Shown here piece after piece: positions 2,369 to 58,067 of a stretch of 64,000 nucleotides of DNA. Below the pieces are notes generated by a model. It did not search any database. It was not told the origin of the DNA and saw only the letters and a program-made list of their open reading frames with translations. Position 1 is the stretch's first letter. Each line of letters opens with the position of its first letter. The position numbers were made by a program, and so were the translations under genes. The DNA lies in assembly GCA_039208735.1 (NCBI GenBank), contig JBCCQY010000008.1:34703-98702 (forward strand), in the 5' to 3' direction. Origin of the DNA: Myxococcota bacterium (GTDB taxonomy: Bacteria; Myxococcota_A; UBA796; GCA-2862545).

Positions 2369-4495
2369 ATGGCGCTCGTTCCATCGGACAAAGCTGGACA
2401 TTGGCACGATCCAGTTGTCGACCTAAACGGCCCTATCACCGTGGCGTTGGTGGTGGGGGTGAGCCACTATCCTCACCTCGGAGGCGGTAACGACCCGGTG
2501 AACGAGACGTTCGGGTTCCAACAACTCAACGTCTCGGCGCTCACGGCGTGGCAGATCTTCAACTGGCTGCGCCACGAGTTCCGAAGCTCCGCCCCCCTCG
2601 CCGAGGTGTGGCTTCTGCTGGCGCCCAGCGACAAAGAGCGTTCGCTGCACCCTGAGATGATGCAACACGCACAGGAACCTGACTTCCTCAACCTTCAGAC
2701 CGCGACCCGCAATTGGGCCCTGCGGGTGCGTTCCATTCCGGAAACGCAACGCGCATCCAGCCGAACGGTCTTCTTCTGGTCGGGGCACGGCGTCGAGGTG
2801 CACACCCGGCGCCAATTGCTGCTCCCGACGGACTGGCCCAAGCTCGACCACCACCTTTGCTTATCGGTCGACAACTTGCGTCGCGGGCTCGATGACATCG
2901 AAGCCCAACAGATCCTTGTCATCGACGCCTGTCGCACGGGTTCGGCCGAACTCAAAGAACAGGTCGAAGACGGCTCGAGCATCCTCGACGTGGTTCGTCC
3001 CGAAGACACGGTGGATGAGCTGCAGCGAGTCGTGCTGCACAGCACCAAGCCAGGCGCCGAGGCGATGGCTCCACTCGATCCAGCGGCCGGTCCGACCCTG
3101 TTTGGCCGTGCCCTTCTCGATGGCCTCCGCGGCTTTCACGACATCTCCCTTACGCCGAACGGAGGAGGTTCGACCGTACATGTCGACCAGCTCATCGGCT
3201 ATCTGAAGCGTCGGGTCAAGGAACTCCTAAAGAAGACCAAGGCACCAACGGGACAACTCGTTCGGCCCCTTCGTGAGAGCAGCAACAACCTGGAGTTAAC
3301 GTTGGTCTTGGCGCCACCAGACCAGCTGCCTCCGGATCCTCCGGAGAGTGTGGCGGTCCAACCCATCGGACTCTCGACGAGGGTCGAGGGCAATCAGATC
3401 GTGGTCGTAGCGGAAAGCCGCCCCGAGGCCGGTGGATTCCGGGGCGGTGCCATCGAGACCAAGACCTCCATCCCACTCGAAGCCTTAGCCAACGGGGCTC
3501 CCATTTGGGTCACAGAGCGAAATGGTTCGGTCGACCAGGTGTTCGCACGACCTCCCACGCCGGAGGAGGCGCCCGTGGCCTACCGGGTGGGGGACGTACG
3601 CCGGAATGGAAACTCCGCGACATTCCGCCCCGCGGTGCCCGACCCGCGATTGTGGCGCACCATCGATGATCCGCTCGATCCGGAAACCACCTTGCAGACC
3701 TCGGTCTGGTCGGCAGCCCGGCTAAGTCCGCTGGAGCAGCCCGAAGAGGACGTGGCCTTCGAACTGGAAGAGCCTCGTTCCAGTCGCGAGGGGCAAATGC
3801 TTCACGGACGGCTCTCCGCAAACGGACAGGGCGGCCCCTTTTTGCTTCAGCTGCCCGGAATGTCGGTCGTGCTCGCCGGCGATGAAGGTGCCGAGTGGCG
3901 CGTTGAAGCCGGATGGACCCCCAACGCAGAACCGCGTGTCGTGAGCGACCTCCGTGCCGCGCTTCGGTCCGATCGGGATGACCCGCAAGGCCGTTCCGCT
4001 CGGCTGTGGGATCTCTACATGGCGGCAAGCGCAGGAGAAGCGGCGGAACTCGTAGAAAGCTCTTGGATTACGCTCGAGTCACTGCTTGCGGGCAAGCGCC
4101 GAGCCCCGTTTGCTGCCGTGGTCGCCGGTCTCGTGTTGGTGCAAGGCCGCCGTTTTGATCTCACCCACGATTGGCTCGGCAACCTAGCGCGGTGGTTTCC
4201 AACCATTCCAGATACGCACGTGCTCCACGCATACGAGCGCATGGCCTATGGTGCGAGGCGAGATCAAGCCGCCATCGTGGAGGCACTGGCTCCTCTCGTA
4301 GACCACGGACTGCCCTGGACCAGCGATGGATACGCACTCGCCACAGACGTCGTGGAGCGTATCGGCATCGACGATCCTCGGATCGCGAGAATCAGCCACG
4401 CCCTGAAACGCATGGCCCCTTTCCTCGGTGCCGGCACCCTCTTCGCCACCTTCGTCGACCACCCCCGACGCCCATCCCTGACGGAGATTCTATGA
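2369..4495 (+). CDS. Caspase-like (peptidase C14) protein with long uncharacterised C-terminal region, ~708 aa
   Basis: ALVVGVSHY, FFWSGHG (catalytic His), ILVIDACR (catalytic Cys), TLFGRALLDGL; ATG 2369 preferred over the ORF-track start at 2090. Confidence 0.85.
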   Translation: MALVPSDKAGHWHDPVVDLNGPITVALVVGVSHYPHLGGGNDPVNETFGFQQLNVSALTAWQIFNWLRHEFRSSAPLAEVWLLLAPSDKERSLHPEMMQHAQEPDFLNLQTATRNWALRVRSIPETQRASSRTVFFWSGHGVEVHTRRQLLLPTDWPKLDHHLCLSVDNLRRGLDDIEAQQILVIDACRTGSAELKEQVEDGSSILDVVRPEDTVDELQRVVLHSTKPGAEAMAPLDPAAGPTLFGRALLDGLRGFHDISLTPNGGGSTVHVDQLIGYLKRRVKELLKKTKAPTGQLVRPLRESSNNLELTLVLAPPDQLPPDPPESVAVQPIGLSTRVEGNQIVVVAESRPEAGGFRGGAIETKTSIPLEALANGAPIWVTERNGSVDQVFARPPTPEEAPVAYRVGDVRRNGNSATFRPAVPDPRLWRTIDDPLDPETTLQTSVWSAARLSPLEQPEEDVAFELEEPRSSREGQMLHGRLSANGQGGPFLLQLPGMSVVLAGDEGAEWRVEAGWTPNAEPRVVSDLRAALRSDRDDPQGRSARLWDLYMAASAGEAAELVESSWITLESLLAGKRRAPFAAVVAGLVLVQGRRFDLTHDWLGNLARWFPTIPDTHVLHAYERMAYGARRDQAAIVEALAPLVDHGLPWTSDGYALATDVVERIGIDDPRIARISHALKRMAPFLGAGTLFATFVDHPRRPSLTEIL

Positions 4496-7400
4496 GTGTT
4501 ATCGACCCGCGATTTGTGATCGACCTGGTCGAAGGTCGTTTTGGCCGAACTTCTCGTACGGAACTCGATGCATTGTTCGCGGAGGCGGCGGACCACGATC
4601 ACATTTGTCTGCACGTGCACGGGGGCTTGGTCAAGCACCATGAGGCGCTGAACTCGATCCCCATCCTTCAACAAACCATCGAACCCCATGCTCGCCCCAT
4701 CTTTGTGACATGGAATAGCGGTGCGGTCGAAACGCTGGTCCGCAACCTCGATGAAATTGCCAAAGACGCGCTGGCCCAACGCTTGTTCGCCTGGGCCCAA
4801 GACGAGGCAGAGCGCACCGAAGACCATCCATCGGGCTTCACCAGCGAAGAAGCCCAGGCAAAAGCACTCGCCGCCGCGCTCGCGCGCGACGAGGATCTGG
4901 AACGAGGACTGCGGGCCGCACGCGACCGCGAGGCGGCGGGGTTCTCCCTCATTCCCCAGGTCGTCTCAAGTTCGGTCCTCAAGGAGCTGTTCGAAACCGC
5001 AGCGGGCATCAACTGGATGTCGCTCGCCCTCCGGCTGGTACGCATCGTCGCCGCCGCCGCCAAGCGACAAATGACCGAGCCCGGAAGGCCCTTCCTCGCA
5101 ACGTTATTCGAGGAGACGATTCGTTCGCTGTTTGGTGACGTCCTTGGGGAAGCGTACTGGACGGCGATGAAGGGCGATACACGCGAAGCCTTCGCCAACC
5201 ACGACGATCGCGGTGGCCGGCACCTTCTGCAACGACTCGCCTAGTGGTGGCAGCCGGGGCGACGTATCAGCTTTATCGGTCACTCCGCAGGCGGCGTCTT
5301 TTTCTGCCATCTGCTGCAGCATGCCAACCTTCTGCCCGAGGACTGCCGCCTCGACGCCATTCTCATCGCCCCCGCGTGCTCGTTTGAACTCCTCCACGCT
5401 TCGCTGCAGTCAGCAGGAGGCTCTCGCTTGGGCCGGATGCGGGTCTTCGGACTCTCCGACGTGCGCGAACGCGGATACTGGGAGTGGTTTTACCCTGCGT
5501 CACTGTTGTACCTGGTCTCGGGACTGCTCGAAGACAAAAGCGACAAGCCGCTTCTGGGGATGGAACGGTACTGGGACGAAACGCGCTACCCTTCAGCCGG
5601 CGATGAAGCGCTGAACGGGGTGCGCACCTGGTTCACGACCCACGAATCCGCGGCATTTTGGTCTCCTCATGACGGCGAGCCCGGTACCGAAACGCAGGGC
5701 GATACTCACGGCTCGATCAGCGAAGAGTTGGTGACCCTCGAGAGCGTCGGGTGGCTCCTCGAAAACAAGTCTTGGGATGCGTCGGGTAGTTTTTCTCGCC
5801 CGAAGGCGTGCCGAGTGGTGGAACGATGGCAGCGAGCGGCTCGCTCCTTTCCGATCCATCGACGTCAGCCGGCCCCCACCACCGGCGGTCAAGGCTTTCG
5901 AGCCGCGGTTGGCCAGGTCGACCTGACCCGAGAATTGTACCAGTCCACCTTTGGCTATGGTCCGGGGAAGGCCAAGGGCGGTGAGGGGTGGTTCGGGCGC
6001 CTCCGAGCCGTCATGATGCTGTTCGAAGACGATCGAGGCGAACGCGCACTCGTGCTGGGCGCGGATTTGCACTCAGGGGCCCGGTACCTCACCGAAGCAT
6101 TGGCTTGGCACCTCGCGGACATCGGCCTGTCGGTCGATCGAATTGTCTTCACCTCGTCTCACACCCATTCAGGCCACGGACGGTTCTACGGCGTGCCCAC
6201 CTACGATCGACTGGCGGGACGGATCCGTTCACTGTTCGATGGGTTCGACGTACGCGGAACCGCGCGAATGGTGGAGCGCATGGTACGGGAAGCCCGCCGA
6301 TTGGAGGGGCAACTGCGACCCGCTCGCATCGGCACGGGACACTCGGATGCGTGGGGAACCCTTTGGAACCGGAGTCTCCCGCCATACCTCGGCAATTTCT
6401 TTGAGCCCACCACCACGTCCGAGGACACCCAGCGCAACACTGTGTTGAATGAGGCCCGACGCTGGCATCCCGGCGGAGAGGTTCCGACCGACCTTTCGCT
6501 TGACCACCTCGCCGTAGACGCACGGATTCGCGTGCTTGTCGTGGGGCCCGATGAAGACGGAGCTCCACCGTGGGGGGCCCTGGCCTTCATGGGAGCCAGC
6601 CCGACGCTGTCAGCGAGCCACCTGCGGTGGTACTCCTCGGACGCGTTTGGAAGTGCGGCGAAGGCGGTCGAACGGACCCTTCAGAAAACCATGGGGCGCC
6701 ATGTGCCGATCGGGGTCGTCGGCTCGGCCAATGGGGATGTGAATGTCGTGGTGCGGGGCATGCCCTTCGATACGCTTCAGCGGGCGCGAAACCGGGACAT
6801 CATCGAGGGCGCCAATGCAGGGGAGCCCAGGCACGTGCTAGATCGGCGAGCCGCGGGAGTCCACGTCGTACGCCGTGCGGCCGAGGCCATCGCCTCCCAT
6901 GTCGTGGATGCCATCTCAACCGGATGGGCGGCGGCGAAGGCACCGTCACAGATCAACATTCGGTTCGAGGAATCTGTGATTCCAGAGGCCACGGGTCCGA
7001 TCGAAGCACCGGATGCCCCTCCCCACCTCGGGGCGCCTTCGATCCACCAGTACAAATTGCCCTGCACCTGGATGATTGGAGAATCGACGTTTGCGACGAG
7101 CGAACTCAACCGAGCCTGGGAGCCCGTGCCTCCCGAGCAGGGTGTCGAGCGGTCCAAGAGATTGAAGCCGGACGAACGTGCGCTCCAGATCATCGAATGG
7201 CGTGACCCCCACAGCCCCAAGAAGCCCCCCGTCAACATTGCGGGGTCACCCCTCCAAGAGTGGCTGTCCTTCATTGGGCCGGTGGGTTCCCTCGGACTCG
7301 ATCCCTACTTGCCCCTTCACCTGTTGTCGTTCGACGATGACGTGCACATCGCAGGATTGCCCGCCGAGCTTTCGGTTCACTTCAGCCGGGAATTGCGCCA

Positions 7401-8100
7401 GGCGCTGGATGGCACCCTTGGCGGAGAGGTCCTGCTGGGAGCGCTCGCGGGCGGCTACACGGGATACGCTTCCACGATTGGCGAATATGCCGTCCAGGAC
7501 TACGAGGGTTCCTCCGTCTATTGGGGACGCCACTTCGGGTCGTTGATCCGTCAGCGACTGGCGACGCTGGCCGCGGCATCACCGCAACCGGTCGGTGAAG
7601 GAACGCCAGGGACCGCCTATTTTGTTCGCAACCAGGCGCCCCTCGAAGAGATTGCGATTACGCGCGAGGACGAAGACGACGCAGGGTTTCGGCCCGGACC
7701 CGATCTTGGCGTGCTCCGACGCAAACTCGAAGGCATCGACAATGATCCGAGCCTCGTGCGGCTCGTGGGGTCCTGGTCACCGCGAAAGAAGCCCCAACGT
7801 CAAGGCCGATCGCGCATCGGCTCTCCGCAGCCCGCCGGAACGTGGTTTGTACGGTTGATGGAGGGTGACACGCCGTTGATGGTAAATGGAAGCCAGGTCG
7901 ATGATCTCACGCACGACATGGGCGTGTGGTTCGATCGCAAGGAACGCCGGTGGGTCTTCGTGTTGGAGATGCCAAAGGCGGTGCTCGCGGGGCGGAAGAT
8001 CACCTACGATCTGCTCGATGACGATCGGGTTCGTCCAGCCGGTGCGTTTCACCCTCCCGAACCCAAGTCCGTCGATGAGATGCCGGATGTAAACCGGTGA
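4492..8100 (+). pseudogene. Alpha/beta-hydrolase + neutral/alkaline ceramidase-like fusion (~1202 codons) interrupted by one in-frame TAG at 5242-5244 (pseudogene, sequence error or readthrough)
   Basis: ATG 4492 overlaps caspase TGA; ORFs ending 5244 and starting 5428 share a frame and the gap reads *WWQPGRRISFIGHSAGGVF..ILIAPAC; hydrolase motifs HGGL, GHSAG, YPASLLYLVS, PLLGM; ceramidase motifs GQVDLT, SHTHSG, NRS, GDVN, PAE, YTGY..EYAVQDYEG. Confidence 0.8.
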
Positions 8101-9338
8101 TCGAAACACTCAACCATGCGGCCGATCGAGCCTTGGCATCCCTTGCATTTGAGTTCGATGAACTCGAGCGTCAGGCTGCGGCCAACATCGACAACCGCTT
8201 CGTGGCGAACCGTCGCCACATTCACCGATTGCTCTCGATGCTGCGGGCAATGCTGGCCGATCTCAAAGGCGCAGGCCGTAGCACTGTGCAGGATGCGCTG
8301 AAGGTCCTGGATGCCGTTCAGGGCGCCCATGTGGTCTGGGGAGCCTACCGCGACCGGTTCGAGCAACGCGAGCGCGAGGAATGGCGATTCATCCTTCTTT
8401 TAGCTGACGATTTGGCCCGGGAGTGCACCCCTGCCGTCGTGCAACGCGAGCCTCCGTTGGTGATGTTCTCGGCCGAGGGCTCACCAGCCGTCCAGCCTCG
8501 AGGCAGCCCAGAGATCCCCCCGCAGCTGGACACGCCAGAACTCCAGCAACGCTTCCAAGACCTCGTCTTTCGCATTCCTGTGCCCATCCTTCATCTGCCG
8601 TGGCGTTCTTGGACCGATCTCCCTTCATTGGCGGTAGTCGCCCATGAGGTCGGCCACATGGTGGAGCGAGACCTGGGCTTGCCTGTAGCGGACGTCGCCG
8701 CAGATGCCGTGGAACCAGAAGACAGAGACCGAGCTCGTCAGTGGGCCCGCGAACTGTTCGCGGACGCGTGGGGGGTAGCGTGCTGTGGTGATGCGTTTTT
8801 GGAGGCGTTGGCCCTTGCTGAAGCGGCGTCGCCGCAAGCCCTCGCCGACCAGGCACCGCGTGACAAATATCCCCGGGCCCTCTCTCGCCTAAGGGCCGCT
8901 TTTGCCGCCTTTCAGGCACTGGGACTGCCCGACGCTCTTGCCATCGAGAGCCGATGGACGTCGACGTTCGAAATGGCGGGAGCCCCTGCGCTGGCCGATC
9001 AGCGCGTTGCAATCCAGGTCATGCAGGCGTTCGTGGAACGAACGTGGACGGACGACGTGCGGCTTGACCGTCAGATCCCTGAAGGCAACGTCCAGGATGT
9101 GGTGACCCGCCTCAACGACCCCACGAGTGGGCTCGTCGGAGGCACAGACGCACGCGTCGTCGTACGGGCCTTGGCGCAGCTGGACCGTGCCCGCTTCACC
9201 CCGGATGGCGCATCGGCGCTGGCCAAGCAGTGGCGTTCAGCGAGGCACTTCGAAGATGGATTGCTGGTTCCATCCGTCGATGATGAACAACTCGGAAAGA
9301 CCTTTGCCCGTCGACTCTTGAGTTCGGAGACCCCATGA
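8097..9338 (+). CDS. HExxH zincin-like putative metallopeptidase
   Basis: AHEVGH followed by WARELFAD and YP..LSR; GTGA overlap with upstream stop. Confidence 0.7.
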   Translation: MIETLNHAADRALASLAFEFDELERQAAANIDNRFVANRRHIHRLLSMLRAMLADLKGAGRSTVQDALKVLDAVQGAHVVWGAYRDRFEQREREEWRFILLLADDLARECTPAVVQREPPLVMFSAEGSPAVQPRGSPEIPPQLDTPELQQRFQDLVFRIPVPILHLPWRSWTDLPSLAVVAHEVGHMVERDLGLPVADVAADAVEPEDRDRARQWARELFADAWGVACCGDAFLEALALAEAASPQALADQAPRDKYPRALSRLRAAFAAFQALGLPDALAIESRWTSTFEMAGAPALADQRVAIQVMQAFVERTWTDDVRLDRQIPEGNVQDVVTRLNDPTSGLVGGTDARVVVRALAQLDRARFTPDGASALAKQWRSARHFEDGLLVPSVDDEQLGKTFARRLLSSETP

Positions 9339-10084
9339 CGTTCGAGGAGTTTCGTGCTGCCCAACCCACGGTGACCGTGGGTGGGAAAACCTGGTTCGTC
9401 GTCGAGGACGACATGCGAATGAACGAGGTGCGACTGCTTCAGTATTGGCAGTCTCGAGTGAGCCAAGCCACGCCCGGGCGCCTGCTCGAAAAGCTGGTCG
9501 GTGGCATGGGTCCCGAGGGACGATTGGTTCGGTGGTCACCCGGGAGCGTCCTGACCTACGCGGTGCTTGACGAGCATTTTCCGTCCCCAGAACGCGCCGC
9601 CACGATCCGCCAGGCCATGCTGGAAGCCGCGAGCGATTGGCAGAGTGTGTGCGGGGTGCGTTTTCAGCGTTTGGACGTTCCCGAACACGAAGCAACGGAC
9701 CGAGAGCGTTGCCTGTTTACCGTCAGGCAACACGACCTGAGTGGTGGGCTCATCGCATTGGCCTTCTTCCCTGACGACCCCGCGGACGAACGCGACATCT
9801 TTGTCGACCCGACCTTCCCCGCAACGTTCTCCGCGCGGGGCATTCTTCGCCATGAACTTGGGCACATCCTTGGGTTCTACCACGAGTTCACGAGGCATGA
9901 ACTCGACAACATCGACATTGGCGAGGCCGATCTCCGCTCCGTGATGAACTACCCCCAACACGGTGGAGACCCGAGTTTAATGATCACCGACGAAGATGCT
10001 CGCGCAGCTCGCGAGGTCTATGGTTGGCCCGTTGGGGATTCGAAGATGGTCGAGCCACCACCGCCCGATTCCTCCACAGTTTAG
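9335..10084 (+). CDS. Metzincin (matrixin/M57-like) metalloprotease without signal peptide
   Basis: HELGHILGFYHE (HExxHxxGxxH), Met-turn SVMNYP, ALAFFP, N-terminal FEEF..VVEDD pro-region; ATGA overlap. Confidence 0.85.
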   Translation: MTFEEFRAAQPTVTVGGKTWFVVEDDMRMNEVRLLQYWQSRVSQATPGRLLEKLVGGMGPEGRLVRWSPGSVLTYAVLDEHFPSPERAATIRQAMLEAASDWQSVCGVRFQRLDVPEHEATDRERCLFTVRQHDLSGGLIALAFFPDDPADERDIFVDPTFPATFSARGILRHELGHILGFYHEFTRHELDNIDIGEADLRSVMNYPQHGGDPSLMITDEDARAAREVYGWPVGDSKMVEPPPPDSSTV

Positions 10085-39608: not shown

Positions 39609-42017
39609 GTGGGTGCACGTTGGCGCCAAGTGCTGTGGGGAGCGCTCGTCGCGTTGCCGTTGGCGACGTGGGGATGCAAGCGGGGCGAACCCGTCCCCAT
39701 TCCCGGCGAGCCCACGGCCGACACGGGCTCTTCTGAGCCGGAAGGCACGGTGACGCCGTGTGAGGGAGCGTTTTCCCCACAGCCACTGCTCCCCTACGAG
39801 GTGGTCACGAGCCCGGACTGGGGCTTTGGCAGCGGACCCGATGCCACGTCTGAGGTCATCTTCTACAGCCGGGCCACGGGCAGCGGTCACCTCGTTGACG
39901 GCGATGGACAAGGCGGCTTTGGACCCATCTTCGAGCACGAGAATTGGTTTCGTGAGTGGGATGGCTTCGTTTCCGGTCAATTCGGCGGAGACCGCTACGC
40001 AGATCTGGTCTTTTTCGACTTTTCGAGAGGGGTAGGCGATGTGATGACCAGCGATGGCGCTGGACAGCTGACGCTATTGCGTAGCCACACCAATTGGTTT
40101 GATGGCTGGGATCTGCTCCTTCCGGGGACGTTCAACGACGACGAGTGGACCGATCTGTTCTTCGTCGACACGGATGGCGGGTCGGCGGGCATCTACCTTA
40201 CCGACGGATCAGGCAACCTGACCGAGCATCGTTTCTACGACAATTGGACGCCATGGCCGTTCGTGGTTGCGGGCGACTTCGGAGGAAATGACGACATCAC
40301 AGACTTCTTTGTGATGGATACCGCATCCGGGGTGGCCCAGTTCCTCCTCACCGACGATGCAGGCGAATTCACGTTGGCGGGGCCTACCATCACGGGCTTC
40401 TGGAGCGAATGGGACACCGTGGTGACGGGAGACTTTGATGGGACGGGTCAGGACGACCTGCTCTTCGTCGACTTCGACAGCGGTACTGCGGCGATCTCCA
40501 CGACCGATGGTGCAGGCGGGTTTACTGAAATCCAGCGGTACACCAACTGGAGCACGGCATGGACCCAGGTCGTGGTCGGTGACTTCGCAGGTTCCTCACT
40601 CGATGATCTGCTGCTTTACGCCAGAGACATGGGCACCGGATCCGTTCAGGAGTCGATTGGCGGTGGGCAGATTGTCCAGCGCTCCCTGTTTGAAGACTGG
40701 CGTACCGACTGGGATTGGATGGTCACGTCGCCCCGACGAGAGGAGGTCTCGCCTGTATCGTTGTTGCAGCCCGATGAAATCGCAGGTCGCATGGGGCATG
40801 GGGCGGACAACCCTGGCACGCCAAGCCTGCTCGTTCTGCTGTTCGAGCCAGGGGGCCTCGAGTTCCAAGAAGGCCACGACTTGGCGTTCTACCGTCGACA
40901 GCTCGAAGGACCTGGGCGCAACCTGACCGACTTCTTCGGCGAAACCTCAGGTGAGGCCTTCGAGTTCTCGAGTGTCGAGGTCCAAGGCCCCTATGCGATG
41001 CCATCCATCGCGTCGTTTAGCACCGTCGAAGAGGCGAGGGCCGCCATGATCGAGATCGCCCAGTCCAACGGCATCGATTTCGCCGCCTTCGACGACGTGA
41101 CCCAAGGCGGCAATGGCGATGGCCAAGTCACGAACCGTGACGTGGTCGTGTACGGCATCCTCTCCACCCCTCGGACCCCGGCGGATGCCCCTCCCGACGT
41201 GTTCGCCATCGTCCGCAACACAGATCCGACCTGCCTTACGTCGGGACCGCTTCCGGTGTGCTTGCGCATGCCAACCGCGGGAGAGAGTCAGTCCCTGGCC
41301 ACGTTCGCCCACGAAACGGTGCACGCCTTGGGCCTCCAAGCGGCCGATCTCTACGCCGACGGCATCCCCACGGACCAGTTGACGCTAATGGGGAGCACAA
41401 TATCCTTCGAGCCTGACGTTTTGGATACCACGACTCACCTCGACCCTTGGAATCGGATGCGATTCGGGTGGACCAACCCCCGCGTCTTCCGAATCGACGG
41501 TCCTGGGTCATGCGAAACGTTGGCGAACTGGGCGGACTGTGGGACCCGCGGCATGGGGGAACGGCGACCGGTCGTCCTTTACGACGCGGCTCGAGGACTG
41601 GATGAATTCTTCATGCTCGAGTATCGGGACGTCGATCCTCCGGAAGGTGCGCACTACGACCTGCTGCGCGCGCCGTGGGCCCCTGGAGGCCTCGTGGTTT
41701 GGCACATTCGGACGCAAGGCGATGGTGGCTACCTCTCGGAGGAGGTCCTGCCCATTCCAGGCGGCACGACCACCGCACGTGTCAATCAGGTGGTGGACCC
41801 GGACGGCGGATTTGGGGCTGACGAGCTGTTTTCGGATCCCTCCCGGGCGTATCGGCTCGCTTGGCTGGACGGAACCGACACCGGGATTACGCTCCGCGTG
41901 GGGTCGGGCGACGGCAGCTTGCTTGATGTGAGCTGGGTCCGAGATGGCACATCCCTCGTGTCCGACATGCTCGAGCCGAGCGCGCAACGAAGCTGCCTGG
42001 AACAGTTCACCCCTTAG
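39609..42017 (+). CDS. Lipoprotein with FG-GAP/VCBS-like repeats and M6 (immune inhibitor A)-like metallopeptidase domain
   Basis: RBS AAGGAGG, LATWGC lipobox; ~49-aa W..GDF.G...DL.F repeats; AHETVHALG, DLY, LMG, HLDPWNR..GW, EFFMLEYR, GLVVWHI. Confidence 0.8.
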   Translation: MGARWRQVLWGALVALPLATWGCKRGEPVPIPGEPTADTGSSEPEGTVTPCEGAFSPQPLLPYEVVTSPDWGFGSGPDATSEVIFYSRATGSGHLVDGDGQGGFGPIFEHENWFREWDGFVSGQFGGDRYADLVFFDFSRGVGDVMTSDGAGQLTLLRSHTNWFDGWDLLLPGTFNDDEWTDLFFVDTDGGSAGIYLTDGSGNLTEHRFYDNWTPWPFVVAGDFGGNDDITDFFVMDTASGVAQFLLTDDAGEFTLAGPTITGFWSEWDTVVTGDFDGTGQDDLLFVDFDSGTAAISTTDGAGGFTEIQRYTNWSTAWTQVVVGDFAGSSLDDLLLYARDMGTGSVQESIGGGQIVQRSLFEDWRTDWDWMVTSPRREEVSPVSLLQPDEIAGRMGHGADNPGTPSLLVLLFEPGGLEFQEGHDLAFYRRQLEGPGRNLTDFFGETSGEAFEFSSVEVQGPYAMPSIASFSTVEEARAAMIEIAQSNGIDFAAFDDVTQGGNGDGQVTNRDVVVYGILSTPRTPADAPPDVFAIVRNTDPTCLTSGPLPVCLRMPTAGESQSLATFAHETVHALGLQAADLYADGIPTDQLTLMGSTISFEPDVLDTTTHLDPWNRMRFGWTNPRVFRIDGPGSCETLANWADCGTRGMGERRPVVLYDAARGLDEFFMLEYRDVDPPEGAHYDLLRAPWAPGGLVVWHIRTQGDGGYLSEEVLPIPGGTTTARVNQVVDPDGGFGADELFSDPSRAYRLAWLDGTDTGITLRVGSGDGSLLDVSWVRDGTSLVSDMLEPSAQRSCLEQFTP

Positions 42018-42028
42018 GCCGGGCGATA

Positions 42029-43198
42029 TCAAAGGGGGAACCGCAGCTCGGCCTCCTTCAGCGAAACCTGCCACGGTTGCGCTGGGTAAACGGCCTCGAG
42101 TCGGCGGAGCAACTGTCGGGTCTTTAGGCCGTCGAACCACTCATGCACCCTCAACGCAAGTTGGTGAGGGGGCGCATTGCGAACGGCTCGCGCCAATCCC
42201 TCGGGGACGCCCATCGCATGCAGCGCCTCTTGAACCGCAGGACGGCCCGGAGGGGTGGACGTGGGATTGCGCTGCAAATGAACGGCCCAGCCCGGAAGTC
42301 CTTCCAACACCTCTCGCAGACACTCAAAAAGTTCAGGATGCGGCAGGCAGTACCTTGCCCGATCCATCGCAGCGGTCGCAGGACCCGTGCCAAAGGGAAC
42401 TCTCGCCGATCGACGGGCACGAATTCGGATCGGCGGCGTATCCGGCGTCGCGAAGGGCCCGAGCTTGCGTGCCTTGTTCAACAGGTGAAAGTCCTCACCC
42501 GCGGCCCGCTTCGGAAACCCTCGTACGTTCGCATACGCATTTGCGTCGACCGCGAGCGTACTGCCAATGCTGAAATGAGCGTAGGGCGACCCTGCCCATC
42601 GCAATCCAGCGACGTAGTAGCGCAGGTACATTTCATACAGCCGATGCGCTTCGTCCACGGCCGAATCCCCGCCTGGGACATGCGTGAACCGGTGGGTGAG
42701 CGCAACGACGTCTGGGGCAACGCCTACGTTGAGGAGTTCCGCAGGAAGCGTCGCATCCGCATCAGTGCTAACCAAAAAGCGTCGAGCCACTCTTCCTCGA
42801 CGATAAAGCGCAAGCGCAACATCGAAGCCAATCTTCCTTGCCAGTCCCACCCCCTGTTTGCGCGGGAGACGACGACCAGGACTGGATCGATCCAATAAGA
42901 GCAGGGCCCGATCGGACTGCTCTCCAAACCAAGCGCCCTCGGCCAGAGGGTTGGTCTGAAAGCACGCCCGCAATGCAGCCACCGTTTCGGCGTTCTGATG
43001 GTGGACCGATGCCGCTTGGTCGTCATGGCCATTGACCACCAGGATGTAGAGCGTCGCCTTTGGTAACCAGCCATCTACGAGCGAGGGCGCTTCATCGGTG
43101 GCGGGAACCACCACAACATGGCGATAGTGACCGTCCAGCCGGTCGGCCAGATGCGCTTCCGCCTCTGCATAACGGCCGAGGTACTGGTCGATAGACAT
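42029..43198 (-). CDS. Putative family-2-like glycosyltransferase
   Basis: VVVVPATDE, GVGLARKIGFD, STDADA (DxD), VRGFPKRAAGEDF. Confidence 0.7.
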   Translation of the reverse strand: MSIDQYLGRYAEAEAHLADRLDGHYRHVVVVPATDEAPSLVDGWLPKATLYILVVNGHDDQAASVHHQNAETVAALRACFQTNPLAEGAWFGEQSDRALLLLDRSSPGRRLPRKQGVGLARKIGFDVALALYRRGRVARRFLVSTDADATLPAELLNVGVAPDVVALTHRFTHVPGGDSAVDEAHRLYEMYLRYYVAGLRWAGSPYAHFSIGSTLAVDANAYANVRGFPKRAAGEDFHLLNKARKLGPFATPDTPPIRIRARRSARVPFGTGPATAAMDRARYCLPHPELFECLREVLEGLPGWAVHLQRNPTSTPPGRPAVQEALHAMGVPEGLARAVRNAPPHQLALRVHEWFDGLKTRQLLRRLEAVYPAQPWQVSLKEAELRFPL

Positions 43199-43200
43199 GG

Positions 43201-43776
43201 TTAGTGCAGGGCCGCACGCGACGGAAGAGTAGAAACCACGCTTGCTTCCAGCGTCAACCAGTAGTCAAGACGCTCCGTGACCCTGTCGCGATGAAAGAAA
43301 TGCTGGGCGAGCCGTACAAAGAGGCCCTGATGACGGCCTTCGGAGCGCGTAATCTCAAGGTAGAAGGCTGCCAACGGATCGTCTCGCTCCGCGAGCGCCT
43401 CGGCGACCAGGCGAAACCGCTCACAGCCTCGGGCTTCGACCACCGCCGCGATCAGCAAATGATCGAGCAGGCGAGCCTCACCCTTGCCGGCGGCCTCTCG
43501 TCGTAAAGCGCCGACATACTGGTCTTTCGTATCGGCCGCAAGCTGAAGCCCGCGCTCTCGAATAATGCGATAGACCTGGTGAAAGTGCTCCAACTCTTCC
43601 CGAGCAAACCCGATCATCTCGTCTACGAGGACTGGACGATCCGGATAGCGCACGACGAACCCCATCCCCGTGGCGCTTGCCTTGCGCTCGCACGCCGCGT
43701 GATCGATCAGGAACGCGTCGAAGTCGGCCAATACCGGCTCGACCCACGTCGAGGCTGTGGCGGTCCGAAGTTTCAT
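43201..43776 (-). CDS. miaE: tRNA-(ms2io6A37) hydroxylase
   Basis: DHAACERKAS, AREELEHF, VEARGCERF, SEGRH di-iron motifs. Confidence 0.92.
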   Translation of the reverse strand: MKLRTATASTWVEPVLADFDAFLIDHAACERKASATGMGFVVRYPDRPVLVDEMIGFAREELEHFHQVYRIIRERGLQLAADTKDQYVGALRREAAGKGEARLLDHLLIAAVVEARGCERFRLVAEALAERDDPLAAFYLEITRSEGRHQGLFVRLAQHFFHRDRVTERLDYWLTLEASVVSTLPSRAALH

Positions 43777-43782
43777 TCCACC

Positions 43783-45216
43783 TCATAGCTCGGCCCGCGA
43801 AGCGTCTCCGAACCCTACTTCGACCCGAACCCCGCCGGACTCCGAACGGGTCAGTCGAAGGGTTCCCCCGTGCCCGGCCACAATCTCCCGACATAGTGCG
43901 AGGCCCACCCCGCTGCCGTCCGGTCGCGTGGTGAACCCAGGAATCAACGCCTGGGTCTGCGCCTCCTCCGACAAGCCCTCTCCATCGTCCGTCACGACGA
44001 TGACGAGACCCGGACGGGCAAGCGCCGAAACCCGAATGGTCATGGCATTGGCGTCCCGTGCATTCTGAATCAGGTTGATAAGCACTTGCTCGACCTGCCC
44101 GATGTCAAACGAGGCCTCTTCGATGTCGACCGTGTCGATGCGGAAGCCAAGACTGGGCGCGAGCCGCTGCAACCAGGGTCGAAGCACGACGGGGCGCCGC
44201 TTTGGAGCCGGCAAACGAGCCAACCGCGCGTGTTCTCGCAAGAACCTGGCGAGATGGTCGATCCTCGAGCGCAAGGTCTTCAGCACCTCCGTCGCGGGAG
44301 AGGTGGGCTCGATCAGGTGATGCAGCGAGTGCACCATCGAGGACATCGGTGCCAATGAGTTGTTCAACTCATGGGTGAGGGCCCGGAGCAGGTCCCGCCA
44401 GGCATCCAGCGTCGTCCGATCGACGGCCTGTGTGACCTCGCGAATGCTGAAGAGGCCGTGCGGTCGGTCCCGAAGAACCAACGTCCGGTGATGAATTTGA
44501 TAGGTTCGTGGCCCGATGGGCACTAGTTCGGTTCGCTCCGGCACCGCGAGGGGGCGAGGGTCGGGAAACCGCCCCAACGCCGTCGTCGCGAACCGCTCGG
44601 TCCCCTCCTTGGTCTGAAGCACCATGCCGTCTTCCGTCGCAGCAAGCACAGCCCCGAGCATCGCTTCTTGCTCACGGAGCAACGTCACGTCCACTTGGGT
44701 CCGATGGACTGCCGCGCCTCCAAGCACCGCGACCAGGCCCGATGCGATGAACGCGGGAAGGGCCGCCACCACGTCGAGCGGCCGTGGGTCGCCGATCAGA
44801 ATCCCTGCCGCTCCGATCCCCACCAGCGCCGAAACCACGGCAAGAATCACCACGGGCGCCGTTCTGCAAGCGGGACCCGGCGAAATCAAAGGGTAGATCG
44901 CTACCATCACGACGGCCCAGTTCAACGCGGCCGCCGGTTGGCCCGTCTCGTAGGCCGTCAAAGCAGCAAATCCCGCCAACGTACAGCTCGAAAGTACATA
45001 GATGGCGCGGGCGAGTCCGGCCAGGATGCGATCGGGCATCCCGAACGTGGCGAGGGCAAGCATCGCCCAAAGCGCCATCGAGATGAGATCGACCTGCTGT
45101 CCGTAGCGCAAGGCCGCCTCACGACCGAGGCCCAAGAACCAAATGAGATTGGAGATCGAAAGGCCAAGGAGCAAGGCCGTAAGCACCGGGGCAAGCACCT
45201 GTAAGCGGGCCTTCAT
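43783..45216 (-). CDS. Membrane sensor histidine kinase
   Basis: Multiple TM helices; THELNNSLAP, EQVLINLIQNA, DDGEG, FTTRPDGSGVGL. Confidence 0.9.
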   Translation of the reverse strand: MKARLQVLAPVLTALLLGLSISNLIWFLGLGREAALRYGQQVDLISMALWAMLALATFGMPDRILAGLARAIYVLSSCTLAGFAALTAYETGQPAAALNWAVVMVAIYPLISPGPACRTAPVVILAVVSALVGIGAAGILIGDPRPLDVVAALPAFIASGLVAVLGGAAVHRTQVDVTLLREQEAMLGAVLAATEDGMVLQTKEGTERFATTALGRFPDPRPLAVPERTELVPIGPRTYQIHHRTLVLRDRPHGLFSIREVTQAVDRTTLDAWRDLLRALTHELNNSLAPMSSMVHSLHHLIEPTSPATEVLKTLRSRIDHLARFLREHARLARLPAPKRRPVVLRPWLQRLAPSLGFRIDTVDIEEASFDIGQVEQVLINLIQNARDANAMTIRVSALARPGLVIVVTDDGEGLSEEAQTQALIPGFTTRPDGSGVGLALCREIVAGHGGTLRLTRSESGGVRVEVGFGDASRAEL

Positions 45217-46508
45217 CTCCGCACGCGGCGCTGTACCTGCACCCCCAGCCGTTCCATTCGACGGTACAGCGCCTGCCGAGACAAGCCCAAGGCCCGCGCC
45301 GCGTGTGCAACCACGCCATCCGCCTCCCTCAAGGCCTGTTCGATCTGCTCCCGCTCGTCATCCCCAACGGGGCCCCGTGCATCGACAAGGCCCAGGTCAC
45401 TCGCCCCCACGCGCTCTCCTTGACGGGTCAGCGCTCCCCGCTGGATCGCATGCTTCAGCTCGCGAACGTTCCCTGGCCAGTCGTGGGCGTGCAACGCCGC
45501 CCGCGCAGTCCCTTCGAGGACCTCGGGGTCGAGGCCTTGTTCGGCCAAGAACGCATCGGCCAGCGCATCGATGTCGTCGGGTCGAGTCGCCAACGGCGGA
45601 ATCGCAATTTCGACCGCTGCCAACCGAAAATAGAGGTCGTCTCGAAAGTGATCGGACGCTCGAAGATCGATGTTCGTCGCGGCCGCCACCCGTACGTCGA
45701 CCCGTTCGACCGGACCTCCACCCAATGCACGAATCTCTTGGGTCTCGAGAGCCCGCAGCAGGGCCGCCTGCCCGTGGCTCGAAAGTGTAGCGATTTCGTC
45801 GAGGAACAACGTGCCTTGGCGAGCCTCCTGGAAACGCCCACGCCGGTCCCGCTCCGCACCCGTAAAGGCCCCTCGCCGCACCCCAAACAGCTCGGCTTCG
45901 ATCAGGCTGTCGGGCAACGCTCCGCAATTCACGGGTACGAAGCGACCGGGTCGTCCCGAATGATCAGCAATGAGCTTGGCAATGCGCTCCTTTCCGACCC
46001 CCGACGGACCGGTCACAAGCACGGGTACGGTGGCCGGAGCCACCCGGAGGGCCAAGGCCACCACACGGGCCATCGCCGACGAACGATAGATGAGCCCTTC
46101 AACCTGTGGTTGATGGGCAACTTCTCGAGCGGTTCGACGTTGTTCCAAGAACCGCTTCAGCTGACGCACCAGGCGCACATCGTCCCATGGCTTTTCGACG
46201 TAGTCATCCGCGCCTTCCCGAACGAGTTCGACCGCGGTCGGAAGATCCGAATAGGCGGTGAGCAGAATGATGCGAAGGTCAGGATCGATCGCACGAAGCG
46301 TGCGAAACAAGGCGCGGCCCTCTTCGCCCTTCGTGGCGCCCAGCGTGAAGTTCATGTCTTGGACGACCACGCTAATGTCACCCTGGCGCACCCAGTGACA
46401 CGCGGCCTCGGGCGTACTTGCGACCTCGACGGGCAAGTCGTGGACTACGCACAACAGCTGTAGGGCTTGACGTACCGCCTCATTGTCATCGACCACCAGA
46501 ACGCGCAT
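45213..46508 (-). CDS. Sigma54-dependent NtrC-family response regulator
   Basis: Receiver domain, GPSGVGKE, ELFG..GAFTGA, LFLDEI, WPGNVREL, Fis HTH. Confidence 0.95.
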   Translation of the reverse strand: MRVLVVDDNEAVRQALQLLCVVHDLPVEVASTPEAACHWVRQGDISVVVQDMNFTLGATKGEEGRALFRTLRAIDPDLRIILLTAYSDLPTAVELVREGADDYVEKPWDDVRLVRQLKRFLEQRRTAREVAHQPQVEGLIYRSSAMARVVALALRVAPATVPVLVTGPSGVGKERIAKLIADHSGRPGRFVPVNCGALPDSLIEAELFGVRRGAFTGAERDRRGRFQEARQGTLFLDEIATLSSHGQAALLRALETQEIRALGGGPVERVDVRVAAATNIDLRASDHFRDDLYFRLAAVEIAIPPLATRPDDIDALADAFLAEQGLDPEVLEGTARAALHAHDWPGNVRELKHAIQRGALTRQGERVGASDLGLVDARGPVGDDEREQIEQALREADGVVAHAARALGLSRQALYRRMERLGVQVQRRVRR

Positions 46509-46534
46509 GTCTAGAGCGTAGCAGGGCTCTCCAA

Positions 46535-46625
46535 CGGACAGGTGTCCGGCCGAATTCCGACACCTGTCCGACTGCTCCACCATTTCTCTGCTTCAACCAT
46601 CACAGAAGTCGGCACGCGACCTGCT
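46535..46625 (+). promoter_or_regulatory. Enhancer (UAS) inverted repeat and sigma54 promoter
   Basis: CGGACAGGTGTC (46535-46546) / GACACCTGTCCG (46559-46570) perfect inverted repeat; CGGCACGCGACCTGCT with GG at 46611-12 and GC at 46623-24 (GG-N10-GC). Confidence 0.8.
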
Positions 46626-46656
46626 GTACAGGGACCCGTCTTCCAATGGAGGAGTC

Positions 46657-48252
46657 ATGTTCCGAATCTGTCTTGCCGCCCTCTTCATGGCCTGTGCTGA
46701 CCCCAATCGCGCTCCCCAAACCACAGGAGATCTCTCCTGGGAGCCGTGTCCACTCCGCGCCGACGAACGCGGACAGCCCACCCAGTGCACGACCACCGCC
46801 ATGCCCTTGTGGTGGGATGACCCCGAAGGCGACACGGTCGAGTTGTTTGCCCAGCGCCACTTGTCCGCCGGCGGTGAGCGAGTGCTCTGGCTCTTGCCGG
46901 GAGGCCCCGGGCAGACGGGTGCCGTGTACGAGGATATCATCAAGCGCTTGGCGAGCCGGTTGCCCGAAACCGATCTGTATGTGTTCGAACATCGAGGGGT
47001 CGGTCGTTCAAGCCGCTTGGGCTGTCCGCTTCAAGAAGCGCCCGATAGTGAAGACGGCATCGACGTCAGCCCCAACGAATGGCCGAATTGTCTGGAGTCT
47101 GTTGTCACCGAAGTGGGTGATGACCTGGCTGCCTACTCGAGTCAAGCGGCAGCGGACGACCTGGCCGAGTGGATTCGCCTGACCGCCGAGGGGCGTGAGG
47201 TCTATGTGTACGGAGCATCGTACGGCACGACCCTTGCCCATCGATTCTTGCAGCGGCATCCTGACCTGGCCGATGGCGTGATCCTTGATTCGCTGGCCCT
47301 CGACGTCGACCATCGGGTGTACGACTCCGAATTCGATGAGGTCGCGCGGCGCGTGTTCGACGCGTGCAGCGATGACGATCGATGCACCGAAGCCATGGGT
47401 CCCGACGCAACGGCTGAGGCTGAAGCCATTCGAGATCGAGTCGACCAGGGGAGCTGCTCCGCCATCGATGGAACGACGCTACGGCGGGGCGCCGCAGCAT
47501 TTGCCGCCGACCCATCCATGCGAGGCTTTATGCCTGCTTTGTACCATCGCTCCGGCCGGTGCACCGAAGACGACGCCGACGATCTCACACGTCTCCGCAA
47601 TCTCTTCGAGGGCGCGGAGCCCCATTACACCGAAACCCTCTATAGTCCTGTGCTGTTCGCAAACATCGAGCTGTCGGAACAGTGGCCGGAGCCGTGGCCA
47701 TCGCTCGCGGACCTGGAAGCCGCGGAAGCGGAGACCCTGGCGAGCTTTGGTCTAGGGGCTCGACAGCGTCCGTTGCTCGACATCTGGCCGAGGTACCCCT
47801 TTGATTATTCGGCAGACAACGCCCTTGCCGACACCACTACCCCCATGTTGCTCCTGCACGGTGACCTCGACCCCCTGACACCACCCTGGCGCGCCGAATC
47901 GGCTCGGGACCATTTTACCGCTCCCGGCCAGCACTTTGTTCGGTTCCCCCGCGGGTCGCATGTGCTGTTGGGCACCACCCCCGCGCCAGGCGGAGACTGT
48001 GCGACGGAACTCCTGGCGGACTTCCTCGACGAGCCGATGACCCGGCCCGATGCCTCATGCGCAGAGGAGACGACGGAATTGGACTTTGATGGTGCACCGC
48101 TGCGGAGCTGGCTCTTGTTCAGCGATTGCAGTCGGTACGGAAACGGCTGCGGTGGCGGCCAGGCGTCGATGAGCCTTGTTCCATTGGCGTTGGCCCTGTT
48201 CCGGCGGCGGCGTGGCTCCGCGAGGAGCGCAAGCCGTCGCATGCCGAGTTGA
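46657..48252 (+). CDS. Exported alpha/beta hydrolase (TAP-like peptidase family) with lipobox and MYXO-CTERM-like tail
   Basis: FMAC lipobox; PGGPG, HRGVGRS, GASYG, DPLTP, GSH; C-terminal GCGGG..LVPLALALFRRRR. Confidence 0.85.
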   Translation: MFRICLAALFMACADPNRAPQTTGDLSWEPCPLRADERGQPTQCTTTAMPLWWDDPEGDTVELFAQRHLSAGGERVLWLLPGGPGQTGAVYEDIIKRLASRLPETDLYVFEHRGVGRSSRLGCPLQEAPDSEDGIDVSPNEWPNCLESVVTEVGDDLAAYSSQAAADDLAEWIRLTAEGREVYVYGASYGTTLAHRFLQRHPDLADGVILDSLALDVDHRVYDSEFDEVARRVFDACSDDDRCTEAMGPDATAEAEAIRDRVDQGSCSAIDGTTLRRGAAAFAADPSMRGFMPALYHRSGRCTEDDADDLTRLRNLFEGAEPHYTETLYSPVLFANIELSEQWPEPWPSLADLEAAEAETLASFGLGARQRPLLDIWPRYPFDYSADNALADTTTPMLLLHGDLDPLTPPWRAESARDHFTAPGQHFVRFPRGSHVLLGTTPAPGGDCATELLADFLDEPMTRPDASCAEETTELDFDGAPLRSWLLFSDCSRYGNGCGGGQASMSLVPLALALFRRRRGSARSASRRMPS

Positions 48253-48628
48253 ACTGCCACTAAGACGTCCCTCAAACAGGTTGCGATAACGTTGAAGGTG
48301 AGCGACGACCTCGAAATGTCGGCCACAAATCCAAGGCCTCATGCGTCTTATCGACGAGAGACGTAGGGGCGCCAAGACCACAAGCGCACAACCGGCCCGC
48401 GAGAATTGAGGAAGCGCAGCATTTGCCAAACCAAGCACCGCATCGAGCCAGGGCCAGCGCCGGAAATCAGCACTATCAACTTTGAATCACTCATATGCCT
48501 GCGGGCCAACAAGCCACACCAGCCAGCAACTTGCCTTGCAGGTGAAGACAAGCTCATGTATGGTGCTCCACAAACATGGGCTCGGCCTACCGATCCGCAC
48601 TTGGCTATGCCACCACGAGGAGATTGTC

Positions 48629-49813
48629 ATGCAGCGACGCCAGTTTCTCACTTCCGTCGCGGCGCTGGGGGCTGCCACCCCGCTAAACGCAGCCTGGGCG
48701 GAGGCTCGAACCACCGATCCCCGGCTCGTTGTTTTCGTCCTCATGGGCGCACTCGATGGCCTCACTGCGATACCCGCACACGGCGACCCTCACTACAGAC
48801 AGGTTCGCAGAGACCTTGCCCTTCCCCCACCAGGGGCCAAGGGTGGGCCCGTCAACCTTGACGGAACGTTCGGGCTCCATCCATCAATGGCTCCACTGTA
48901 TCCGCTTTACCAGCAACGGCAGTTGCTCGTGGCACACGCGATCGGGATGCCATATCGCGAATCGTCACACGCGCGCGGCCAGCGCATTCTCGAGGGAGGA
49001 ACGAATCGGCTTTCATCGTTACGTACCGGCTGGCTGACGCGTGCATTAGGTTCGAACGCGAAAACCGTGGTCGTGGGACGAAAGGTCCCTCTTTTGATTC
49101 AGGGGCGCACCCAAACAAGCCTCCTAAATCCGCATGCCACACAAGCTATGGAGTGCAACACTGATGATACGCCTCGCTCGCGAGTTTCGCCGTTCAGCAA
49201 ATGGGAGCGTTCGCTCCTCGCCTCGGCCCGAATTGTCGGTCACCAGCTCAGCGAGCCCCACGGCGTACGTAGCGCCGTCTTCCTCCTTGGCGGATGGGAC
49301 ACCCACACTCATCAAGCCGACGGTTACGAACATAAGCTCGCTCTTCTGTCCCACGCCATTCTCGCCATGAAGCGGCAGATGTCAGAAGAGGTCTGGCGCC
49401 AAAGTACCCTGTTGGGTGTTACAGAATTCGGCCGAAGCGTGGTACCTAACAATTATGGCGGAACCGACCATGGGATGGGCTCCCTTGCGCTTCTCGCCGG
49501 TGGTGCTGTTGCCGGGGGAAGAGTCCTGACTGACTGGCCAGGGTTATCGCCAAAGCGGCTCATTGGTGGCGAGCACCTTCGTCCGACCCACGACCTGAGA
49601 GGGCTCCTCAAAGGAGTGCTCCATGATCACATGAACGTCAGCATGAAACGTCTGGAGCACTTTGTCTTTCCGGGAAGTCGAGGTGTTGCGATTTTGCCTG
49701 ACCTCATCAGGCCTCGGCCAGCATTAAATCCCGTAGACTCAACCCCCAGAGATGACCGCCGCGATGCACGAAAGCACCGTCGATGGCATCGGAAGAACCT
49801 TCGAAAGCACTAA
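48629..49813 (+). CDS. DUF1501-domain protein with Tat signal
   Basis: MQRRQFL; GALDGL, FGLHP, GGWDTH, TEFGR, GTDHG, GGAVAGG..DWPGL. Confidence 0.85.
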   Translation: MQRRQFLTSVAALGAATPLNAAWAEARTTDPRLVVFVLMGALDGLTAIPAHGDPHYRQVRRDLALPPPGAKGGPVNLDGTFGLHPSMAPLYPLYQQRQLLVAHAIGMPYRESSHARGQRILEGGTNRLSSLRTGWLTRALGSNAKTVVVGRKVPLLIQGRTQTSLLNPHATQAMECNTDDTPRSRVSPFSKWERSLLASARIVGHQLSEPHGVRSAVFLLGGWDTHTHQADGYEHKLALLSHAILAMKRQMSEEVWRQSTLLGVTEFGRSVVPNNYGGTDHGMGSLALLAGGAVAGGRVLTDWPGLSPKRLIGGEHLRPTHDLRGLLKGVLHDHMNVSMKRLEHFVFPGSRGVAILPDLIRPRPALNPVDSTPRDDRRDARKHRRWHRKNLRKH

Positions 49814-49823
49814 GCCGCCGCCT

Positions 49824-51107: not shown

Positions 51108-51115
51108 TCCCTTTC

Positions 51116-54376: not shown

Positions 54377-54513
54377 CTTGGCCCTCAGGCGGAAGGGTTG
54401 AACTTGCGTTGCAGGTCAAGCGTGCCTTAAGTATGCTGCCAAACGCAAGCTCGCATTTCCGAAGAAATCCTGGTTGGCGAGGGCACCATGAAAGCTGAAA
54501 CAGATCACCGAGG

Positions 54514-58065: not shown

Positions 58066-58067
58066 GC

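Follow-up and report, generated by a model that had tools for sequence, protein, structure and literature searches.

A four-gene operon of a Myxococcota bacterium with caspase-like, hydrolase-ceramidase-like, gluzincin and metzincin products: a possible cytoplasmic zymogen cascade

The four genes and their products

The window analysed here, a stretch of 64,000 nucleotides from a Myxococcota bacterium (contig JBCCQY010000008.1, positions 34,703 to 98,702, of the 9.4 Mb, 288-contig assembly GCA_039208735.1), carries four co-directional genes, g1 to g4, encoding a caspase-like peptidase, a hydrolase-ceramidase-like protein and two different zinc peptidases (Table 1). They are joined by 4-nt stop/start overlaps (ATGA at 4492, GTGA at 8097 and ATGA at 9335) and the G+C content of their third codon positions (GC3) is uniform (0.68-0.71). 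A first-pass annotation of this DNA had listed the same genes and overlaps, with a catalytic motif in every product and no signal peptide. The coordinates hold, the motifs are real and intact in all four proteins, and a simple hydropathy scan finds neither a signal peptide nor a membrane helix in g1-g4 (top 19-residue mean 1.43). An in-frame ATG at 2090 is a possible alternative start for g1, but plasmid homologues start at the position corresponding to 2369. Neither a sigma-70 promoter nor an excess of terminators was found.

Table 1. Genes and domains of the operon (window coordinates)
Feature	Coordinates	Strand	Description
g1	2369..4495	+	708 aa; C14 caspase-like peptidase with C-terminal Y4kD_C-like region
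g2	4492..8100	+	1202 codons; in-frame TAG is codon 251 (5242-5244)
g2 N-terminal alpha/beta-hydrolase domain	4492..5781	+	HVHGG; putative triad S265/D323/H406; contains the TAG
g2 neutral-ceramidase-like domain	5890..8100	+	PF04734; matches to PDB 2zws and 4wgk
g3	8097..9338	+	413 aa; gluzincin-type metallopeptidase of a family without a name; HEVGH plus E219/D223
g4	9335..10084	+	249 aa; metzincin like matrix metalloproteinases (MMPs) and astacins; H173, E174, H177, H183; Met-turn M204, Y206
g4 N-terminal 45-residue domain	9335..9469	+	predicted pro-domain; Asp26 (VVEDD; family xEGD)

The reading frame of g2 is interrupted in the window by a TAG codon. At position 5242, a near-identical 16.4-kb contig of the public run X1, which may be the source of the window's DNA, reads G (GAG), its single difference from the window in about 7,600 bases; a contig of run X2 (depth 4.6, from a separate study) reads C (CAG). 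An intact 1202-aa protein, P0201, belongs to the same cluster as g2 and is identical to it at 1201 of 1202 positions. The window letters at 2389 and 2415 likewise differ from both X1 and X2, and near-identical pieces of g1-g4 occur in runs from three studies. Since both runs carry sense codons, an intact protein exists and other letters are peculiar to the window, the best explanation for the TAG is an error of assembly, with a nonsense allele at strain level as the less probable alternative. Genome-wide recoding of TAG was rejected on the ARAGORN list, which has no tRNA with a CTA anticodon, and on the sense codons of the other runs.

The first product, g1, belongs to the C14 caspase clan by its SGHG/DACR dyad (H140/C188) and its match to PF00656 (E 2e-6; 28 bits against a cut-off of 21.4). 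It scores 44.5 bits with NF047832, the EACC1-associated caspase system, below the cut-off of 140, and PADLOC yields one weak caspase match (E 1e-4). The likeness of its C-terminal part to Y4kD_C clusters (Atlas features, 0.90-0.92) is a lead.

The metzincin g4 shows the zinc motif HELGHILGFYHE followed by SVMNY, exceeds the cut-offs of both PF00413 and PF01400, and has the clan residues listed in Table 1 within an MMP fold; Foldseek aligns its catalytic domain with MMP-2, karilysin and serralysin (E about 2e-7, probability 1.0). The Glu that follows the third His in the astacin family is present (E184; 84/86 aligned rows). The astacin motif EXXRXDRD is absent from g4 (EFTRHELD) and from the family consensus (EHIRSGAP). 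In the structural model, a folded 45-residue N-domain precedes a low-confidence, floppy linker (residues 46-52). Asp26 of the N-domain is near-invariant (85/86 rows), and Asp was not part of the search patterns. According to the accessible portion of PMC9848320, the Asp of an FXGDI motif blocks the zymogen zinc of animal astacins (aspartate-switch latency). Because the folded N-domain, the near-invariant Asp and the low-confidence linker match this switch, the N-domain of g4 is likely, by model and analogy, to be a zymogen switch.

The other zinc peptidase, g3, is a gluzincin: its HExxH (residues 183-187) is followed by E219xxxD223, and E184, H187, E219 and D223 are invariant in 125 aligned sequences. 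HExxH with a downstream Glu is found in 140 of 150 hits. The g3 model, with a predicted local distance difference test score (pLDDT) of 90, comprises an N-terminal three-helix bundle and a catalytic domain, and the fold of the latter weakly resembles those of M13 and M48 peptidases (Z 5.4-6.5, root-mean-square deviation 5-9 A, 160-190 aligned). Foldseek gives no PDB match at E <= 0.001, and VIA-align gives none at Z >= 8. Scores with all Pfam and NCBIfam families stay below the respective cut-offs (PF01435, E 0.067). Atlas values of 0.77-0.78 with peptidase U49 (Lit)/M48 are leads only, and one relative matches the PADLOC profile peptidase_U41 (E 2e-10). This family without a name comprises 765 clusters at 50% identity in an exhaustive search; a word-indexed search returned g3 alone. 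Several divergent gluzincins with a fused C-terminal domain lie among TIR-like genes at L010 and L011 (G038:C75, about 40,600-57,200), and comparable long forms adjoin a metzincin at L081 and L090/L091.

The hydrolase domain of g2 contains GHSAG (Ser265) and matches DUF900 weakly, below cut-off. Its putative triad lies in motifs common to g2 and P0191, an independent intact hydrolase-ceramidase fusion 44% identical to g2, and the domain has no match in 10 phylum genomes. The C-terminal part passes PF04734 (E 3e-16; 59.4 against 32.1 bits) and matches PDB 2zws (E 2.5e-23) and 4wgk (E 7.7e-23); with NF041649, the neutral ceramidase family, it scores 37 bits, far below the cut-off of 1200. Six of seven key ceramidase positions are retained (H557, H559, R627, E959, Y992 and Y1004, equivalent to H97, H99, R160, E411, Y448 and Y460 of 2zws). 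The seventh, His204 of 2zws, which we take to be a zinc ligand (the roles of the other key residues being likewise assumed), aligns with Ser703. Its equivalent is Ser or Thr in g2, in P0191-P0193 and in three further relatives (L092, G023 and G019). It is retained in P0194, a single 1370-aa protein composed of an N-domain, a g4-type metzincin, a ceramidase and a calcineurin-like metallophosphoesterase. Members whose metal site is altered form a ceramidase-like subfamily that may act on a new substrate. No other PF04734 gene is found in this genome. Relatives of the domain occur in 5 of 400 other phylum genomes (E <= 1e-40) and in 17 metagenome loci, and the closest of them are stand-alone genes.

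Elsewhere in the genome, the domain that ends a 2179-aa frame resembling polyketide synthases (PKS; L131, G000:C22 2291-3367, minus strand) finds its best PDB match in serine palmitoyltransferase (E 2e-65), a weak hint of a possible sphingoid substrate. In G010, a genome of the same family, a secreted caspase-like gene abuts, by eye, a signal-less ceramidase-like gene (L123 7854-11673). Finally, xGF repeats at g2 residues 110-155 and 463-473, replaced by xL(A/G)L in the matching loops of P0191, could be locus-specific cleavage motifs; this idea was discounted, as the pattern was picked post hoc, although it occurs 5 times where shuffled sequences would yield 1.6 (p about 0.03).

Recurrence of the parts in other genomes

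Two modules can be distinguished. Module I consists of a C14 caspase with a Y4kD_C-like tail and an alpha/beta-hydrolase, and module II of a helical gluzincin and an MMP-like metzincin. For module I, 18 plasmid records match g1. Full-length homologues are carried by Deinococcus and Agrobacterium plasmids; in NGR234, Streptomyces, G287 and L038 the homologue is divided over two genes. Six loci were opened (four plasmid records, G287 and L038), and in four of them (Deinococcus p96k, Agrobacterium p4, pNGR234a and G287) an alpha/beta-hydrolase-like gene with VHG...xHSxG lies directly upstream of the g1 homologue. In the window, the GHSAG domain of g2 comes after g1. The same pairing is described for VMAP systems, whose caspase always has a neighbouring alpha/beta-hydrolase (accessible portion of Kaur et al. 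2020, PMC7159879). Genes for qatA, DUF262, WYL and PD-(D/E)XK proteins lie near relatives on plasmids.

For module II, the g3 alignment is too divergent for a locus scan and g4 was therefore used as a handle, so that the tallies, taken from the best 80 of 546 confirmed g4-family stretches, are biased to g4-holding loci. A gluzincin is present in 27 of the 80 (one weakly); judged by record titles, these loci span six phyla or more. CHAT genes accompany 21 of these 27 (leaving out L012, where the match is inside another protein; L081 is a fragment) and none of the remaining 53. Three of the six gluzincin loci without CHAT reach a contig edge. Two layouts are found. The first runs CHAT-STAND, giant NTPase-like protein, gluzincin, metzincin (Anaerolineae, Caldilineaceae, Arthrobacter, Microbacterium and Polyangiaceae). 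The second runs gluzincin, CHAT, CHAT, small N-domain protein, metzincin (Pyrinomonadaceae and Sorangium) and is permuted in Blastocatellia and Minicystis. Among 150 hits, one, P0011, is a natural gluzincin-metzincin fusion. Moreover, a second gluzincin and metzincin pair exists in the window's own genome (L001 12021-16053; G000:C2 about 170,000-174,050, minus strand). After this pair come genes for an S8 subtilase, an HTH-DUF4423 protein and a regulator of the sigma-54 type. The accompanying protease is exchanged between loci (C14, CHAT or S8). The gluzincin also occurs in other company: in G013 it faces a CHAT-like/NTPase/DUF7379 cluster with no g4-family match, and on a Sinorhizobium terangae plasmid it occurs with CHAT and ATPase genes but without an annotated metzincin. 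Related loci also hold STAND NTPases, trypsin-NucA proteins (4/80), TIR-WD40 proteins and a metallophosphoesterase.

The recurrent core is the gluzincin with the metzincin, with or without a caspase-clan protease, and not the lipid enzyme. Recurrence had been proposed earlier as a check on the four genes as a set; the combination was not seen again in the loci examined, and it is the two modules, separately, that recur. Their distribution is patchy: near-full-length strong gluzincin matches occur in 2 of 301 phylum genomes, the window's among them, and neither g3 nor g4 was found in four congeners (80-95% completeness), two of which have different genes upstream of a shared hydrolase-TetR pair.

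A second copy of the N-domain is present in 40 of the 80 g4-family loci, 37 times encoded by a small frame close by, in either orientation, and three times as the end of a HAD-M28 protein. The small proteins retain Gly-Asp in 20 of 20 aligned. From their sequences, these 60-130 aa N-domain homologues are candidate trans-acting pro-domain inhibitors. Free copies were looked for without success in this genome and in the nine loci with the STAND-type layout. Examples of the small proteins are L014 9580-9885, L029 9564-9863, L043 9573-9833 and L041 9568-9867 (minus strand), among others.

Further observations concern the larger neighbours. The proteins between CHAT-STAND and the gluzincin are 1500-1840 aa long (L015 2914-8433, L016 2510-7738 and L049 3906-8450); those submitted have no Pfam, NCBIfam or PADLOC match, and a plasmid counterpart matches AAA_16 weakly. 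NucA endonuclease genes adjoin g4-family metzincins in L023, L032, L059 and L040, with a confirmed trypsin-NucA fusion in L032. These loci recall system 3 of Kaur et al. 2020 (PMC7159879).

A possible cascade and its alternatives

We tentatively propose, a little short of calling it probable, that the operon, which joins the two modules, works in the cytoplasm as a zymogen cascade of the kind found in biological conflicts. In such a cascade, g4 would be made latent, with Asp26 of the N-domain capping the zinc. A stress or infection cue would activate the caspase g1, whose slot is taken in relatives by CHAT-STAND, a CHAT pair or a subtilase. Either alone or via the gluzincin g3, g1 would cleave g4 in its floppy linker and g2 in the linker between its two domains. 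Once freed, the metzincin and the hydrolase and ceramidase-like domains could attack proteins of the host and lipids with acyl or amide linkages, leading to arrest or death. The ceramidase-like domain would be exchangeable cargo, captured locally, rather than a core part. A role in defence is inferred.

The first-pass annotation had already suggested a conflict or anti-phage system in which a protease cascade releases a lipid-degrading effector. Its outline survives in part: the operon encodes a cytoplasmic multi-peptidase unit, its parts recur with caspase-clan proteases, STAND NTPases and conflict-type genes, and g4 looks zymogen-like with its folded N-domain and Asp26; the four-gene set, in turn, did not recur in any locus examined.

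Several observations weigh against the proposed cascade. The exact four-gene set was not found in any other locus examined; none of the 80 metzincin loci holds a ceramidase or g2-type hydrolase, and one (L038) holds a g1-type caspase. Neither gluzincin nor CHAT is present in 53 of the 80, and the gluzincin is missing from 37 of 57 long-flank loci; g4 would therefore often work without a caspase-clan partner. The CHAT profile was built from the same loci, although six of the eight members submitted also matched PF12770 of Pfam. Sorangium supplies eight of the 27 gluzincin loci, so that the 27 are not independent. The likeness of the g2 hydrolase to those of module I covers 36 columns around the nucleophile elbow (probability 80.5); given this limited extent, it occupies the same slot but is no clear orthologue. 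The flanks of all 22 ceramidase loci (5 plus 17) are without g1, g3, g4 or CHAT homologues. No sensor domain is evident at the g1-g4 locus, and no defence gene was recognised in the window by eye, with library scans covering g1-g4 and their flanks. The STAND protein of relatives is also absent from the locus.

In the version of the first-pass annotation, which is a narrower sub-case of the cascade, the caspase releases the hydrolase-ceramidase as a dedicated killing effector that degrades membrane sphingolipid. The independent fusion P0191, the joining of ceramidase to a g4-type metzincin in P0194, the six retained key positions, the abutting caspase-like and ceramidase-like genes of G010 and, as a hint only, the serine-palmitoyltransferase-like PKS domain speak for it. 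The Ser or Thr at the His204 position, the stand-alone state of the nearest relatives, the 22 ceramidase loci without g1, g3 or g4 homologues and the low NF041649 score weaken it, and we regard it as quite unlikely. The boundary between the modules could also be no more than an accident, with two unrelated cassettes lying side by side, g2 decaying and no four-part system. The combination is indeed unique among the loci examined, modules I and II are mostly found apart and g2 has a stop in the window. However, all three junctions are 4-nt overlaps with uniform GC3, two runs show an open g2, near-identical pieces of g1-g4 were recovered in runs of three studies, and module II favours a caspase-clan neighbour elsewhere, which makes this the least probable explanation.

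An unlikely alternative, though better placed than either of these, is regulatory or developmental proteolysis of the HetF kind, in which specific host proteins or lipid signals are processed without killing and without relation to phage. No PADLOC system matches, many relatives adjoin metabolic genes (GMC oxidoreductase, LodA, tyrosinase, M28 peptidase), and a free pro-domain copy would suit tight protease tuning as well as it suits an antidote. Nevertheless, the patchy and rearranged spread across phyla, the swapped proteases (C14, CHAT, S8) and the STAND, NucA and TIR partners are typical of conflict loci, and the qatA, DUF262, WYL and PD-(D/E)XK genes near plasmid relatives point the same way. 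A bolder form of the cascade reading, rather doubtful, would be a cross-phylum family of cytoplasmic conflict systems, based on a gluzincin and an MMP-like zymogen, that has not been described before. In these, a caspase-clan protease or subtilase would strip an Asp-switch pro-domain and free an MMP-like executioner inside the cell. The separate pro-domain copy would serve as antidote, and different cargo enzymes could be swapped in, in this operon a ceramidase-like amidase whose site is altered.

Relation to known systems

VMAP, gasdermin and CRISPR-CHAT systems already follow the logic of a caspase-clan protease that gates enzymes encoded beside it in patchily distributed operons; the g1-g4 locus falls outside all three. 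According to the accessible portion of PMC7159879, VMAP (MoxR-vWA) ternary systems likewise place a caspase-clan peptidase next to an alpha/beta-hydrolase, with a predicted joint action in conflict. In g1-g4, by contrast, the hydrolase is fused to a ceramidase-like domain and two zinc peptidases are added. No MoxR, vWA or VMAP gene was seen: g1-g4 and their direct flanks match other families, and the rest of the window was inspected by eye only. Gasdermin operons encode a C14, CHAT or subtilase protease beside the substrate that it activates (bioRxiv 10.1101/2021.06.07.447441, accessible portion), and the same three protease types fill the partner slot of module II. The proposed substrates in g1-g4 are enzymes and not a pore-former, and no gasdermin match was found for g1-g4 in Pfam, PADLOC or NCBIfam.

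In type III-B CRISPR systems, a SAVED-CHAT to PCaspase cascade reportedly has one cytoplasmic protease activate a second. The g1-g4 locus differs in having no CRISPR, SAVED or nucleotide sensor and in having a metzincin as its downstream protease. Metzincins of the MMP and astacin types are known as secreted enzymes. With the zymogens of astacins (M12A) and matrixins (M10), as presented in the accessible portion of PMC9848320, g4 shares HExxHxxGxxH followed by Glu, the SxMxY Met-turn and an FXGD-like Asp in the pro-part. It departs from them in having no signal peptide, a fold nearest to MMPs and no RxDRD motif, and in its pro-part, for which a folded structure is predicted and which is also found as a gene of its own. 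The g2 domain agrees with neutral ceramidase (2zws, 4wgk; PF04734; NF041649) at the six aligned key positions and differs by the Ser in place of His204, the missing signal peptide, the fusion to a Ser hydrolase and its distance from the NCBIfam cut-off.

The first-pass annotation had not recognised the gene combination as a named system, and none in PADLOC or NCBIfam fits g1-g4. Searches aimed at them gave no description of the four-gene combination or of the gluzincin-metzincin module with CHAT or with a free pro-domain, in literature that lies outside most subscription papers and the Kaur 2020/2021 supplements, which may list such neighbourhoods; nor is there one in the accessible portions of PMC8195603 and bioRxiv 10.64898/2026.10.19.760177. 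The module with the free pro-domain was not found in PADLOC or NCBIfam either. If the cascade is real, a widespread family of cytoplasmic metzincins controlled by caspase-clan proteases and accompanied by a separate pro-domain gene would constitute a new type of bacterial protease cascade, and a family of at least 765 gluzincin clusters would gain a function. The more valuable lead is the recurrent module and not the ceramidase; its smallest versions, a gluzincin, a metzincin and one protease, are compact. Further along the window, at its lower-GC end, lie three large co-directional genes (1183, 859 and >1118 aa; 54514-64000).

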